Positions 41,412 through 48,339 of a stretch of 64,000 nucleotides of DNA are shown here, piece after piece (positions within the stretch are counted from its first letter, which is position 1; the number at the start of each line of letters is the position of its first letter). The notes beneath the pieces are model-generated. The model saw only the letters and a list, made by a program, of their open reading frames with translations. It was not told where the DNA came from and did not search any database. Location of the stretch: the IMG/VR virus record IMGVR_UViG_3300011113_000649, positions 41,554 through 105,553 of that record; one strand, written 5' to 3'. The translations under genes were made by a program, and so were the position numbers. Source of the stretch: a virus.

Positions 41412-41691
41412 TATGAATAGCCTCGTTGAGATCGTTTGCTTCGGCCAATTTAATTGGGCCTTTTGGAATATCTATCCAATATGATCCATATACTCCATAA
41501 AAAACATTCCCAAGGGTACGGTCGTGCATCAAAAATTCTGTAGCGTCATAAAATATATCCAGATGCCATTCACCATTTTCGTCTTGAACCTCTTTTACTG
41601 TATCAACAAGAAGAAAAGAAAAATTAGGGTGCTTAAAATCTGGATCGCTGTAAACAACTCCTCTATAAAATTTATTAGGTAGACTTATCAT
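41362..41691 (-). CDS. hypothetical protein
   Basis: Coupled ORF. Confidence 0.55.
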   Translation of the reverse strand: MISLPNKFYRGVVYSDPDFKHPNFSFLLVDTVKEVQDENGEWHLDIFYDATEFLMHDRTLGNVFYGVYGSYWIDIPKGPIKLAEANDLNEAIHIAQEIMGSKIVDKTHD

Positions 41692-43485: not shown

Positions 43486-44106
43486 TTATTTATCAGATTT
43501 TTTAAGATTATCTATAGCCCATAGTGGTTGCAAATTACTATAATGAAAACATTTTTTCTGTTCTTCTATTTTTGTTAGATCAAAACTAGCACAAGGCTTT
43601 ATATGGTCTATATGCCATTTTCCATAGTTATCCCAATTCATACCATCGACAAAAAGATTCTCTAAATATAGTTTTAGATAGTCCCAAGAACAACCAGTTA
43701 AATCATATGATGTGCTATTTTTTGATCCTCGTATTAAAGCCATTCTAATACGATTACTAATAATTGTTCTTAATCTAAATTGAATATTCTTTTTTCTTTT
43801 AAGTCTGCGTTGTTTATTAATTTTATCTCTGTATTTTTCTCTATATTTTTTAGCATTTATTGAAATTTTATCTGGATTATTTTTTCCCCACAGTTTTCTA
43901 TGTTCATTAAGACAATCTCTATTTTTCTCACGATATGCCTTTTGTTGTTGCTTTATTTTCTTTTTATTCTTTTGCCTTCTAATCTGATTGTATACTTTAT
44001 GACAAAGTTTACAGTATGGGGATTTTCCATCTTTTGATGCTTTTTGACTATGGAAATGATCGATTTTTTGTTTTTTATTGCATTTTATACATTGTTTTAT
44101 TTTCAT
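43486..44106 (-). mobile_element. free-standing HNH homing endonuclease
   Basis: CxxC..CxxC N-terminus, basic linker, WHIDHIKPCASF..CFHYSNLQPLWAIDNLKKS. Confidence 0.85.
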
Positions 44107-44146: not shown

Positions 44147-44848
44147 CTAATTTTCAAAAACGTATGACCAATACCTAGAATCTGTTTTATTTTGCTTGGC
44201 ATCCCAAAATATGCACCTAGCAATATATGCAGGAACGCCTAGTTTACCACAATTAACACTCCAGTGCCTTTCCATCTTTTTATATTGATCAAGACCTTTT
44301 TTTGATTGATATGTCAGTGTTTTCATACCATACAATTCCAACATATGAGTGTCTCCACAAAAAACTCTGCACTCATTAGGGTGACACTGTTCCAAAGCAA
44401 ACGAAACTTTAGCGGTTCCTAGACCAGAGATATTATTAACAATCTGATCTCTTTTCTTTACATGATACTTTTTACTGGTTAGATAAAATTGCTTAGGATC
44501 TTGCCAGAATTTATCCTTAAACTGCCAAATAAATTTTGTACGATTATTATATAGTCCGCATCCACTATTCTTGATTTTTTCTCTAAGCAGTTCTTTATTG
44601 TCGATCCAATCATTGAAATCTTTGATAGCATTGTAGCCATTAACATTACTTTTCCATGTTGTATGAACACTCATAAAACTAAACAAATATCGTCGGAAAA
44701 TATCTTCCACATTTTGAGGACGAACACCCTCCCAGTATTCTTTATATGCTACCACCTTATCTCGCGGAAAAGTAGCAAAAAAAGTATCGGCCTCGCTTTT
44801 GTCAAGAATAGTATTCTGAATAGGAATTACTGTGTTTTCAACAATCAT
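44147..44848 (-). CDS. HhH-GPD-like DNA glycosylase/AP lyase
   Basis: SVHTTW, GLYNNR, HhH ISGLGTAKVSF, GDTHML; start refined after GGAGA. Confidence 0.65.
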   Translation of the reverse strand: MIVENTVIPIQNTILDKSEADTFFATFPRDKVVAYKEYWEGVRPQNVEDIFRRYLFSFMSVHTTWKSNVNGYNAIKDFNDWIDNKELLREKIKNSGCGLYNNRTKFIWQFKDKFWQDPKQFYLTSKKYHVKKRDQIVNNISGLGTAKVSFALEQCHPNECRVFCGDTHMLELYGMKTLTYQSKKGLDQYKKMERHWSVNCGKLGVPAYIARCIFWDAKQNKTDSRYWSYVFEN

Positions 44849-44873
44849 GGTAGTCTCCAATGGGTATGCTACG

Positions 44874-44976: not shown

Positions 44977-45615
44977 ATGAAAAAACAATGTAGTGAATGT
45001 GGTAAATATAAAATTGCTAATAATAAAAATTTCCATAAAAGCAAACATCATAAATATGGACTTCATCCGTACTGTAAGGTATGTCAGAAATCTAAAGACA
45101 AAAAAAGATATAAAAAAAACGGCGATAAAATACGCAACAGAGTTAGACAAAGAACTAAAGATTATCCAGAAAAATTAAAAGCAGAACGTAGGGCATATTA
45201 TCGTAAAAATAAAAGTAAATTACTCAAACAATGTAAAGAATACGCTCAAAGACCAGAGAGAAAAAAAAGAATGAGAGAAATACATCAACATAGAATGGAA
45301 AATGATATTTTGTATAAATTAAGATTTGTGTTAAGATCAAGAATAAGTAAAGCGTTTAAAAGAAAAACTGAAAAAAGTAGAGATATTTTAGGTTGTTCTA
45401 TTGAAGAAGTTCGTAAACATTTAGAAAACCAATTCACCGAAAAAATGTCCTGGGATAATCATGGAACTTATTGGGAAATAGACCATATAATACCTCTCGC
45501 ATCTGCCACAGATCAAAAAACTCTTAGAAAATTATGTCACTATTCCAATCTACAGCCTTTGGAGGCTAGTAAAAATAGAATAAAAGGTTCTAGATTAGAT
45601 TGGACAAATATTTAA
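44977..45615 (+). mobile_element. free-standing HNH homing endonuclease
   Basis: AAGGAG RBS; WEIDHIIPL..CHYSNLQPL..N..KG; paralog of 43486 and 55822. Confidence 0.85.
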
Positions 45616-46533
45616 TTAAGTATCTCTTTTTTCTCCATAAAGATATTTAAAGGTCGGAAAACGAAGACTTAGATTTCCGTCTTGGTTCTTCGTTTCTTCA
45701 AAATATTGTACCAAAATTTGCTTACCTAAAATCTTACAAGGATTACAATAAAACTCTTGTCGTTGATCAATAGTAAAACCACTACCAACTCTAACAGTAT
45801 GACCCTTATGCTTGATCATAACGCAACTTAGCATAGTTTCTTCATGCTCCTTGCCATTTAACACATACCTAAACGGCCCCATTTCTGTGTCTACTACTTC
45901 ATATTCATCATCAAAAAACTTCTTCACCTTTAGCAAATCTTTGCTTCGCTTGCCCTTATATGGTTCATCTGCTCGTAGCATAACTCCTTCCCAAAAATTA
46001 TCTGCTGCTTCTTTAACCCATTCTTGAAAATGTTCATCATTATGAATCAACTCTTGCTCCAAGACAGTCAAGCATGGACACTCATTGGGTTGCATAATGG
46101 CACACAGATGAGCGTATCGAATAGAATATGGTCGATTGCTTTGTCCTTTTTTGCTGTAAAATTCATCAATAGTAATTATATCGAAAATCTTAAATGACGG
46201 ATTAGGAATAGTATGATCCTTCTTGCGAAGTTCTTTCATAACTCCTTGAAAATCTTCATTACCATCTTCATCTACTAGACAAAGTTCTCCATCAAGAACT
46301 ACGTTAGAAATACCAAGAGCTTTAATCCCATCCCTAACAATATTAAGAGTATCAAAAATTTTTCCTGTGCGGGAATAGAAGGTAGTATCGCCATTAGTAT
46401 CAACAATACCAACACATCTACAATTGTGTTTGAGTATACCATTAGCAAAAAAATTAGCATTATCTGCAACTTCTAGTTCATATTTATATTTTGATTCAAT
46501 TTTTTCTATTGACTTAATTTTAACAGTTTGCAT
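45616..46533 (-). CDS. lig: DNA ligase C-terminal half fused to split intein IntC
   Basis: 37-aa IntC (..NFFANGILKHN), then C+1 and ligase motifs YSRTGK, LDGEL, FDII, EGVML, LLKVK, VGSGF, SLRFP. Confidence 0.92.
   Translation of the reverse strand: MQTVKIKSIEKIESKYKYELEVADNANFFANGILKHNCRCVGIVDTNGDTTFYSRTGKIFDTLNIVRDGIKALGISNVVLDGELCLVDEDGNEDFQGVMKELRKKDHTIPNPSFKIFDIITIDEFYSKKGQSNRPYSIRYAHLCAIMQPNECPCLTVLEQELIHNDEHFQEWVKEAADNFWEGVMLRADEPYKGKRSKDLLKVKKFFDDEYEVVDTEMGPFRYVLNGKEHEETMLSCVMIKHKGHTVRVGSGFTIDQRQEFYCNPCKILGKQILVQYFEETKNQDGNLSLRFPTFKYLYGEKRDT
46423..46533 (-). mobile_element. split intein C-fragment (IntC)
   Basis: MQTVKIKSIEKI..YELEV..NFFANGILKHN/C (blocks F and G). Confidence 0.9.
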
Positions 46534-47408
46534 AATCTAGTCTCAATTTTGTTAATATTTTTCTGTATGTCCGATGCCCATAATAGGTATACCTTGTAGC
46601 CAAAACTTTTCAAGTGGTTGACGCGAATTTTATCTTTTTTCCAAACATCTTTGGCACATAATTCTCCTGCCCATGTTATGATTATATCATTTGGTTTATA
46701 TTTTCTAGGATTGGCATGAAATGTATCTCCATAAATTTCGATAATAATCTTTTTTTGTTCTATAATTATATCTGGTCGAGGATTATATATTTTTTTTAAG
46801 GCTTTGTTGTATCTATTAAACTGTATACCATCAATATTTTCACTTATATAGATTATATTGTATTTATCTAATATATTTTCTACTCTTTGGTGTGGTATAG
46901 ATTTTTTACCATTATTTCTTCTATAGCTTGGCAAATCAACCGGATTTTCCACTCCATATTTTTTAATAAGTGTTTGTTTAGTTTTTTCTTTAACGCTTTC
47001 TAATTGAAAAACATTAGTAATTCCTTTACCATATTTTTGTTCTATGGTTTTCTGGGTTTGCTTAGATTGAAAATTATTCTTATAACCATAATTTCTTAAA
47101 TTAGTTTCTATTCTTTTTTGTTTAGTATTCGGATTATTTGCTGCCTCTTTGAGGGTCTGTGTTTTAATGCCTAGCTCTTTGCATCTAGTAATTATATGCT
47201 TAGTTTTAATTTTAGCATTGTTTATCTCTAATTCTAGCTGATAGCAAGACTTGCCTAACTTAATTATATTATCTTTTAGGTATTTTTTAGTTAAAATTTT
47301 ATTTCTATAATTAGTTATATATTGAACATAATTTTTACATTTCGCTTGATGCCCATATAATTGTTGCTTAGTCTTTAATCCGGCCTTATTGCAATATTGA
47401 CATTTCAT
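46506..47408 (-). mobile_element. free-standing Vsr/DUF559-like homing endonuclease between the intein halves
   Basis: N-terminal C2HC, repeated T..(K/N)YG units, PDIII..IIEIYGDTFH..D..R..GYKV..WASD. Confidence 0.85.
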
Positions 47409-47466
47409 TTAAAAATTTCCCTTCTGGTATTTAATACACAGATATCGAGAAAGTTGGATGGAAATT

Positions 47467-47784
47467 TCAATCAAAAAGAATTTCTTCACTTCCGTCCAGT
47501 TCATCTACGCGACGATAACACTTGAGTTTAGGAATATATACTGTGTCATTACCAGTAATATTAAGAGTAATGCCATTTTCTAAAGTAATTTTATACCATT
47601 GTGTAGGCTTGGTTTCAGAAATATCATGAGCATTACTCATATGATTAATAATTGGTTTATACTCAATTTGATTAGTTTTATGATTAAAAGACTTAATATT
47701 CCCATTAATCTTATGCTCCACAACATAGCCAATAGGCAATACAACACCGGTATCAAACTCTACCAGAGTGTCATAATCTACACA
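47467..47784 (-). mobile_element. split intein N-fragment (IntN, 105 aa)
   Basis: CVDYDTLV (block A), KSFN..IEYKPI, YKITLENG..LNITGND (block B), RVDEL. Confidence 0.9.
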
Positions 47785-48285
47785 GCCATCAATCTTTCTG
47801 CTAACATACCAACCGTCCTCCCAGTCTACAAGTTTAGGTTCATATTTATCAGCAAGAGCAACACTGAATTCTGGAATATGATCTTTGATTGCTTTGTTAA
47901 TAATCTTATCGCCAGCACGGGTTTTCAAATCCTTGTCGATAATACAATGGATCAAATCCTCATGGTGCGGATAAGTGTCAACAAAAGAATTAACCGCACC
48001 AATAGCGTCGTGACCAGTAATCTTGCGACTCTTTAGATCATCAAGAAGATCAAAAATATTATCATATCTTATTCCACGAAGATGACTTTTCTTTTTCAAA
48101 TTATCGCTTGTGACATTATATTGCCACATTGGATGATAAGTATACAGAAAAATATTCTTAGCAAAAGTTGCTGATGCTGTTTGGTGACAGCAATAGTCTA
48201 CAATAATACCTTCTTTATCCTTAGTGCTGCTAGTAGCCCTAAGATCACGAACCATTCCCCAAACATAATCAAAATCGTGAGTCAT
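47467..48285 (-). CDS. lig: DNA ligase N-terminal half fused to split intein IntN
   Basis: AGGAGA RBS, start 48285; IIDKDLK, VALA, motif I SRKIDG followed by intein C1. Confidence 0.92.
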   Translation of the reverse strand: MTHDFDYVWGMVRDLRATSSTKDKEGIIVDYCCHQTASATFAKNIFLYTYHPMWQYNVTSDNLKKKSHLRGIRYDNIFDLLDDLKSRKITGHDAIGAVNSFVDTYPHHEDLIHCIIDKDLKTRAGDKIINKAIKDHIPEFSVALADKYEPKLVDWEDGWYVSRKIDGCVDYDTLVEFDTGVVLPIGYVVEHKINGNIKSFNHKTNQIEYKPIINHMSNAHDISETKPTQWYKITLENGITLNITGNDTVYIPKLKCYRRVDELDGSEEILFD

Positions 48286-48310: not shown

Positions 48311-48339
48311 AGTATAACACACTCCAAAGCGTCTGTCAA
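48311..48339 (-). promoter_or_regulatory. sigma70-like promoter for the ligase
   Basis: TTGACA-17 nt-TATACT. Confidence 0.7.

Follow-up and report, generated by a model that had tools for sequence, protein, structure and literature searches.

In the "fractured genes" described by Dassa, London, Stoddard, Schueler-Furman, and Pietrokovski in 2009 (PMC2677866), an enzyme gene of phage origin is broken by the N-terminal half of a split intein (IntN), a free-standing Vsr-like endonuclease gene, and the C-terminal intein half (IntC), with every part on the same strand. The eight host enzyme types include DNA ligase, and the genes described are gp41-1, gp41-8, NrdJ-1, IMPDH-1, NrdA-2, DnaE, terminase, and one DNA ligase locus. 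The ligase locus, which is Felix01-like and comes from Lake Gatun, has a 5′-3′ exonuclease gene downstream and lies outside the five loci assembled with both host termini. Hairpins were found upstream of 15 of 16 endonuclease genes, overlaps with the IntC gene span 6 to 69 bp, and the split inteins carry all five catalytic residues, including the block B histidine (PMC2677866). The Vsr-like (EDxHD) endonuclease family was defined from such loci (PMC2677866, PMC3239194). Here, we analyze a 64,000-nucleotide (nt) stretch of virus DNA, positions 41,554 to 105,553 of the IMG/VR record IMGVR_UViG_3300011113_000649 (the window), in which an ATP-dependent DNA ligase gene is fractured by a mobile cassette of ~1.36 kb that sits inside motif I, between KIDG and (A/C)R, and in which active ligase is, in our judgment, quite probably made by protein trans-splicing.

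The window locus resembles the published fractured genes in its one-strand order of an enzyme gene broken by IntN, a free-standing Vsr-like endonuclease gene, and IntC, and also in its phage origin and DNA ligase host. Two same-strand open reading frames (ORFs) cover the whole enzyme, a hairpin can be drawn upstream of the endonuclease gene, and the overlap of 28 nt falls within the range of 6 to 69 bp. A preliminary description of the locus had already linked it to this layout, a link borne out by PMC2677866; because that paper lists a split-intein DNA ligase locus, the finding is less new than the description had rated it. Unlike the ligase locus of 2009, the window locus is complete and has another gene neighborhood, and unlike the inteins of that study, its intein has Asp for the block B His. 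Judged from its sequence, the locus is a new and complete member of the published layout, in which the replaced residues are conserved and under selection. The three ORFs are all on the minus strand, and their features, in positions of the window, are as follows.

47467-48285, minus strand: ligase N-half ORF, 272 amino acids (aa) from the ATG at 48285, or 290 aa, reaching 48339, if started at TTG.
47785-48285, minus strand: N-extein, 167 aa, with the DNA-binding domain and the first half of motif I, delimited by the ligase profile phrog_114 and by homologs.
47794-47796, minus strand: the adenylated Lys of KIDG.
47470-47784, minus strand: IntN, 105 aa, followed by the stop codon at 47467-47469.
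47782-47784, minus strand: IntN Cys1.
47545-47547, minus strand: the block B Asp (IntN Asp80), with homologs that have His in the same column.
47409-47466, minus strand: spacer of 58 nt upstream of the endonuclease gene.
46506-47408, minus strand: free-standing homing endonuclease of the EDxHD (Vsr-like) family, 300 aa, assigned by Pfam, PHROG, and predicted fold.
45616-46533, minus strand: ligase C-half ORF, 305 aa.
46423-46533, minus strand: IntC, 37 aa, recognized by Pfam Intein_splicing.
46477-46479, minus strand: Glu at block F position 4 (F:4; IntC Glu19), Asp in relatives.
46429-46431, minus strand: Lys before the penultimate His (IntC Lys35) in block G, L-K-H-N, Val or Ile in relatives.
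46420-46422, minus strand: Cys+1, the first residue of the C-extein.
45616-46422, minus strand: C-extein, 268 aa and stop codon, with the motif I Arg, the rest of the adenylation domain, and the OB domain.

The coordinates agree with the three-ORF anatomy first proposed, in which a 105-aa IntN, a 300-aa endonuclease, and a 37-aa IntC are accompanied by a 28-nt overlap (46506-46533) between the end of the endonuclease gene and the start of IntC. The start first given for the N-half, 48285, was also right: the homologous N-halves (271-287 aa) all begin at a Met matching it, and the TTG at 48339 was rejected as a start on this ground. The junctions read KIDG|CVDYD on the N side and KHN|CRC on the C side.

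The two exteins together correspond to a single ligase. Aligned to phrog_114, the PHROG ligase profile, the N-half covers positions 98-250 (expectation value [E] 2e-24) and the C-half positions 250-501 (E 5e-52), so the halves abut exactly at the break. The C-half also exceeds the Pfam cut-offs for the adenylation domain (PF01068, E 4e-14) and the OB domain (PF14743, E 3e-9) and matches the 6rau ligase (E 5.5e-14), and the N-extein weakly matches the T4 DNA ligase N-terminal domain (6dt1). Where the break falls, uninterrupted relatives (434-444 aa) have KIDGARC. Their DNA at the site is ...ATTGAyGGT|GCTAGATGT..., with flanking letters ...AAAATTGAYGGT|GCTAGATGTATT..., and intein-bearing alleles have TGT (Cys) for GCT (Ala). 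Motif I, KxDGxR, is rebuilt solely through the joining of KIDG with CR; profile and alignment thus uphold the earlier proposal that the adenylated Lys lies on a different chain from the rest of the active site. Because the Lys belongs to the N-half and the Arg and remaining domains to the C-half, enzyme activity requires that the two chains be joined, or that they at least assemble. The single PF01068 match in the 105,553-bp record is this ligase gene, and no NAD-dependent or further ATP-dependent ligase was found in that record.

In the working that we propose, two polypeptides would be made, one with the DNA-binding domain and the adenylated Lys and the other with the remaining adenylation domain and the OB domain. 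IntN and IntC would associate into the HINT fold, and class 1 trans-splicing through Cys1, the His-Asn pair, and Cys+1 would remove the intein and leave a 435-aa ligase reading KIDG-CRC. Where a co-infecting relative has an uninterrupted ligase allele, the endonuclease would cut it near ...ATTGAyGGT|GCTAGATGT..., and repair of the cut would copy the cassette in. We infer trans-splicing of the ligase halves from the sequence features set out below.

The arrangement recurs in other genomes. Twenty clusters that end in the same IntN, at 73-98% identity, came from a protein search with the N-half. The best 120 hits of the C-half search comprised 14 clusters of split relatives, with 305 aa and the same IntC, and 106 uninterrupted relatives, mostly full-length (427-444 aa), a few of them shorter or partial, and with no insert. 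In four independent IMG/VR contigs (L081-L084), the stop recurs together with the endonuclease gene, its overlap (28 or 37 nt in relatives), and a spacer of ~55-60 nt, and the ~20 N-half clusters contain no frameshift or internal stop. The preliminary description had named the stop at 47467 as a possible artefact, that is, an assembly or sequencing error that broke a contiguous intein containing an endonuclease domain. The stop proved genuine: L081-L084 and L094, which are independent contigs and come from different samples, share the stop itself, the untranslated spacer, the separate start, and the out-of-frame overlap, and the 20 N-half clusters have the same architecture. A search for longer forms found no fused contiguous form of this ligase; in the longer ligases that it returned (480-490 aa), the match is limited to the N-extein. 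An assembly artefact, to which we assign a vanishingly small probability, is excluded by these observations. A DNA search of GenBank phages with the 3.1-kb region gave nothing relevant. Since the protein search of GenBank phages gave just ligase N-domains at 27-32% identity, the element is absent from the cultured phages searched.

The splice residues themselves are intact. Cys1 is invariant in the aligned N-halves and HN|C in the aligned C-halves of the split alleles, and the class 1 signature of Cys1, C-terminal His-Asn, and Cys+1 is complete. Block B of the window intein reads I-T-G-N-D, with Thr B:7 present and Asp in place of the canonical His B:10, and the string ITGNDTVY is invariant in the N-halves of 18 of 18 aligned relatives. 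We assign the Asp to the B:10 column because the more distant homologs L086-L089 read TGNH or TANH there. Block F reads K-Y-E-L-E-V...A-N-F-F in the window versus R-Y-D-I-...-H-N-F-F in relatives; F:13 is Ala rather than His, a position that also varies among His, Ala, Glu, and Asn in His-type relatives. IntC is near-invariant in nine split alleles. The replacements in blocks B and F do not appear in the preliminary description.

Natural inteins without the block B His are rare in the literature. His B:10 is described as the best-conserved residue of inteins, and only two inteins without it were known, one a pseudogene and the other Tko CDC21-1, which compensates by a lysine (PMC4031507). A bulky residue at position −1 can also compensate for a missing His B:10 (Friedel et al., PMC6333167). 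According to Tori et al. (2012), as relayed in PMC4031507 and PMC6333167, Tko CDC21-1 still splices, with the compensating lysine at another site in the intein. Tko CDC21-1 is an archaeal, contiguous intein with a bulky Leu at −1, and its compensating Lys58 lies outside the conserved blocks. The window intein resembles it as a natural intein lacking His B:10 and differs in being split and phage-borne, in having Gly at −1, and in having the Asp, Glu, and Lys changes together.

Several observations weigh against splicing as we propose it. The further class 1 hallmark His B:10 and the assisting residues Asp F:4 and His F:13, which are less conserved, are all absent from the window intein, and the Gly at −1 excludes the bulky-residue compensation of PMC6333167. 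Neither half reaches the Pfam PF14890 cut-off of 35.8 bits, with IntN at 12.9 and IntC at 25.1. The record is ~76% complete by CheckV, so a second ligase elsewhere in the genome is possible. Finally, synonymous divergence (dS) is saturated in many of the pairs used for the selection analysis below, which makes those ratios rough. The outcome of a search with intein hidden Markov models, which the preliminary description had suggested, was mixed: both halves do match, IntN weakly and IntC at Intein_splicing positions 121-155 with E 1.7e-5, and both stay under the gathering cut-off. The homologous IntN half of L089 scores 36.6 bits, above it.

The window intein can also be compared with gp41-1, the fast-splicing member of the fractured-gene set. 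The two share Cys1 and the C-terminal His-Asn, their fragments are alike in length (about 88-105 aa and 37 aa), and the window IntN and IntC match phrog_16259 and phrog_9690, PHROG helicase families containing gp41-1-like halves. The window intein differs from gp41-1 in its host gene and insertion site, in its Cys+1, and in the replacement of the block B His, F:4 Asp, and F:13 His.

To the extent that intein halves could be paired, the replaced residues change together. Paired halves were recovered from 48 distinct loci. In the Asp-type pairs, F:4 is Glu and the penultimate His follows Lys, as in ...KHN (8 of 8); in the His- or Asn-type pairs, F:4 is Asp and the penultimate His follows Val or Ile (40 of 40). 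The eight Asp-type pairs fall into two groups, that of the window and that of L146 (the P0248 group), L146 being the one additional Asp-type pair given by a metagenome scan. Because the two groups may share one origin, the co-variation of Asp, Glu, and Lys across the eight loci is suggestive and not statistically independent. IMG/VR was also searched for the IntC halves that pair with P0248 and with the TGED and P0259 groups, and just His-type or intein-less loci came back. On this pattern, the set of Asp B:10, Glu F:4, and Lys may replace the usual His, Asp, and Val in activating the N-terminal junction, as a compensating set.

The replacement of the block B His, F:4 Asp, and F:13 His would also suit halves that no longer splice and that hold the ligase fragments together as a non-covalent clasp, like the intein-less fragmented NrdA of phage Aeh1; non-covalent assembly of the product of a gene split by a homing endonuclease is published (PMC3045599). 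A clasp, however, gives no reason for Cys1, the penultimate His, the terminal Asn, and Cys+1 all to be strictly kept. Position +1 is Cys in 15 of 15 split alleles, whereas the 106 uninterrupted alleles have Ala (99), Val (3), Leu (2), or Cys (2), and this change from Ala to Cys, tied to the presence of the intein, would be needless for a clasp. An unspliced 142-aa domain would moreover separate the adenylated Lys loop from the motif I Arg. Asp B:10 is also kept across groups that are just 46-62% identical, which suggests that it is functional. We consider a clasp improbable, and trans-splicing remains our preferred reading. The two uninterrupted alleles with Cys at +1 (KIDGCR) are P0076, which is sister to the split allele P0023, and P0102; they may be footprints of precise cassette loss or alleles pre-suited for the cassette.

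Ratios of nonsynonymous to synonymous divergence (dN/dS) were calculated by the Nei-Gojobori method among the window, L081-L084, and L085. They are 0.03-0.20 for the N-extein, 0.03-0.27 for IntN, 0.07-0.20 for the endonuclease, 0-0.42 for the non-overlapped part of IntC, and 0.10-0.27 for the C-extein. None is near 1, and the exteins, the intein halves, and the endonuclease are under purifying selection. These values bear on a further explanation, in which the ligase is decaying and dispensable and the intein is a dead remnant riding with a selfish endonuclease. The non-canonical catalytic residues fit such a history, as does the uninterrupted ligase of many close relatives. Against it stand dN/dS values far under 1 for the exteins, for the intein halves, and for the endonuclease, the freedom of the ~20 clusters from frameshifts and internal stops, and the failure to find a second ligase in the record. 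Both intein halves are, in addition, intact at split alleles without an endonuclease (L085/L095, L146, L089, L115, L131, and L133). Decay seems to us very unlikely. The earlier proposal that ligase activity depends on trans-splicing is thus well supported, if indirectly, by the sole ligase found, the purifying selection, the invariant splice residues, and the Cys+1 bias, with splicing itself predicted.

The 3′ two-thirds of the IntC coding DNA (46423-46490), which lies outside the overlap with the endonuclease ORF, is 93-97% identical in nucleotides in every locus pair, with dS of 0.16-0.64 versus mostly >1 elsewhere. A recombination end-point or a constraint on the mRNA is a possible source of this conservation.

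The distribution of the cassette shows that it is mobile. In a C-extein tree of 121 sequences, with state changes counted on well-supported branches only, the split and uninterrupted states interchange at least seven times. The window allele groups with 11 uninterrupted alleles (clade support 97%), and its nearest relative, P0004, is 90% identical and has no intein. L083 and L084 share a tract of 80-98% DNA identity (mostly 88-98%) that opens ~146 nt upstream of the insertion and takes in IntN, the endonuclease, and IntC, whereas their exteins further out are only 50-77% identical. This contrast is the pattern to be expected from homing with short co-conversion tracts.

The window intein belongs to a wider family. 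When 1.84 billion representative proteins were searched in full by HMMER for matches to IntN, 451 clusters (at 50% identity) matched at E ≤ 1e-3, 140 of them at E ≤ 1e-10. In nearly all of the best 150 of the 451 clusters, the match follows K-x-[D/H/N/E]-G and sits at the extreme C-terminus, and nearly all are split forms for this last reason. K-x-[D/H/N/E]-G is motif I of nucleotidyl transferases. The hosts include several DNA ligase clades (e.g., SRKLDG and QPKLDG), T4 Rnl1-like RNA ligases (PF09511 on L088 and L089), and proteins with a KxHG motif I. At position B:10, 117 of the best 150 clusters have His, 17 have Asp, 14 have Asn, and one each has Gln and Glu, so that ~22% of these clusters have no His B:10. 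The IntN tree, which is poorly resolved, places Asp in up to seven groups, at least two of which are forced by supported branches, and Asn forms one clade. Beyond the groups of the window and P0248, the Asp-type groups include P0226, P0259/P0293/P0351, P0358, and the TGED group (P0282/P0295/P0300/P0320). We favor, by a modest margin of confidence, the view that the window intein stands in a lineage without His B:10 that works by the Asp/Glu/Lys set, within an apparently undescribed family specialized on ligase motif I. A literature search found no paper characterizing a ligase split intein or describing Asp or Asn at B:10 in such inteins, a result that does not prove their absence. The apparently new elements are the Asp/Glu/Lys residue set under selection in a mobile cassette, together with a family on motif I of both DNA and RNA ligases.

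The gap between the halves is endonuclease-sized in 39 of the 48 paired loci and short in 9. At L147:3573-3872 and L148:1012-1311, a 99-aa remnant of a Vsr-like endonuclease, corresponding to the C-terminal nuclease part, lies between intact His-type halves; as we read these genes, they document decay of the endonuclease with the split intein retained. Two T7-like DNA ligases, P0275 (513 aa) and P0280 (523 aa), contain contiguous mini-inteins of the same family, QPKLDG|C...VHN|CR, and are candidates for the state before splitting. An RNA-ligase-like gene at L143/L144:2953-4619 (EKVHG|C) has the rest of its intein and the C-extein apparently in another frame, which may reflect a frameshift within a contiguous intein. 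L086:3419-4318 encodes an N-half with a His-type IntN; in the 3 kb downstream, the same strand has neither a recognizable IntC nor a C-half, and the downstream DNA has no long ORF on that strand.

The endonuclease was assigned by domain and by fold. Pfam detects DUF7487 at residues 87-166 and DUF559 at residues 248-294 (21.7 bits, cut-off 20.6), and PHROG gives homing endonuclease matches. The N-terminal part is helical, with repeated KYG..N modules, and the nuclease domain is C-terminal, at about residues 208-296. An AlphaFold2 model of moderate quality (predicted local distance difference test score 75.8) has as its best Foldseek match in the PDB the catalytic domain of I-Bth0305I (3r3p; E 1.9e-3, probability 1.00, template modeling score by target 0.70), followed by E. 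coli Vsr (1cw0 and 1vsr). PDB sequence searches with IntN alone and with the endonuclease gave no meaningful match. In seven endonucleases from related loci that are 30-79% identical to that of the window, E224, D228, and H231 are invariant, as are D213, D241, and D259. With its predicted Vsr-like fold and conserved Glu, Asp, His, and Asp, the protein is, on the model, a member of the EDxHD family, and the Vsr/DUF559-like character first attributed to it holds. It resembles I-Bth0305I (PMC3239194) in the C-terminal Vsr-like fold, the conserved Glu, Asp, and His, and a separate N-terminal DNA-binding region. I-Bth0305I, however, is encoded in a group I intron in recA, whereas the window endonuclease is free-standing between intein halves, and the two are 22% identical over the nuclease domain, the N-terminal domain here being DUF7487 with KYG..N repeats.

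In the spacer upstream of the endonuclease gene, the 3′ arm of a possible hairpin pairs over the Shine-Dalgarno sequence. The consensus fold is kept in five loci (the window and L081-L084), with little covariation, and the hairpin of the window sequence alone is not significant (z-score −1.3). Translation of the endonuclease is probably restrained by this hairpin at its ribosome-binding site. The loop motif TATTAAATA was considered as a late promoter and rejected, as it differs from the T4 consensus and lacks conservation in L083 and L084. A promoter and terminator scan of the region did no better than on shuffled sequence. A sigma-70-like match lies just upstream of the ATG at 48285 (48311-48339, minus strand; TTGACA, 17 nt, TG-TATACT; 11 of 12 positions); the regional scan as a whole is no better than chance.

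The surroundings of the ligase look like a neighborhood rich in homing endonucleases. Two paralogous free-standing HNH/endonuclease VII-like genes lie at 44977-45615 (plus strand) and 43486-44106 (minus strand), with matches to phrog_1035 at E 1e-18 and 1e-21. The first adjoins the ligase stop codon on the opposite strand, and an Ogg-HhH glycosylase-like gene (44147-44860) lies between the two. In a related phage, a ribonucleotide reductase-like gene at L085:7154-8311 contains a contiguous intein that has a LAGLIDADG-type endonuclease domain (...ACQ|CIASGE...LAYLLGFSYGDGF...).

Split inteins from fractured phage genes, such as gp41-1, NrdJ-1, and IMPDH-1, are among the fastest protein-ligation tools, and new orthogonal ones are sought. 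The locus offers a complete, naturally paired split intein at the active site of a ligase, along with evidence from natural populations that the cassette is still moving between ligase alleles. It is also a natural experiment on intein catalysis, since whole lineages have Asp or Asn at B:10 under purifying selection, and Asp80, Glu19, and Lys35 bear on whether a different catalytic arrangement can drive the N-S acyl shift with Gly at −1. If the proposed working is true, the Asp/Glu/Lys set would be an alternative means of activating the N-terminal splice junction. The preference for motif I of nucleotidyl transferases across the family shows how a single intein lineage can track a conserved active-site motif through non-orthologous hosts.

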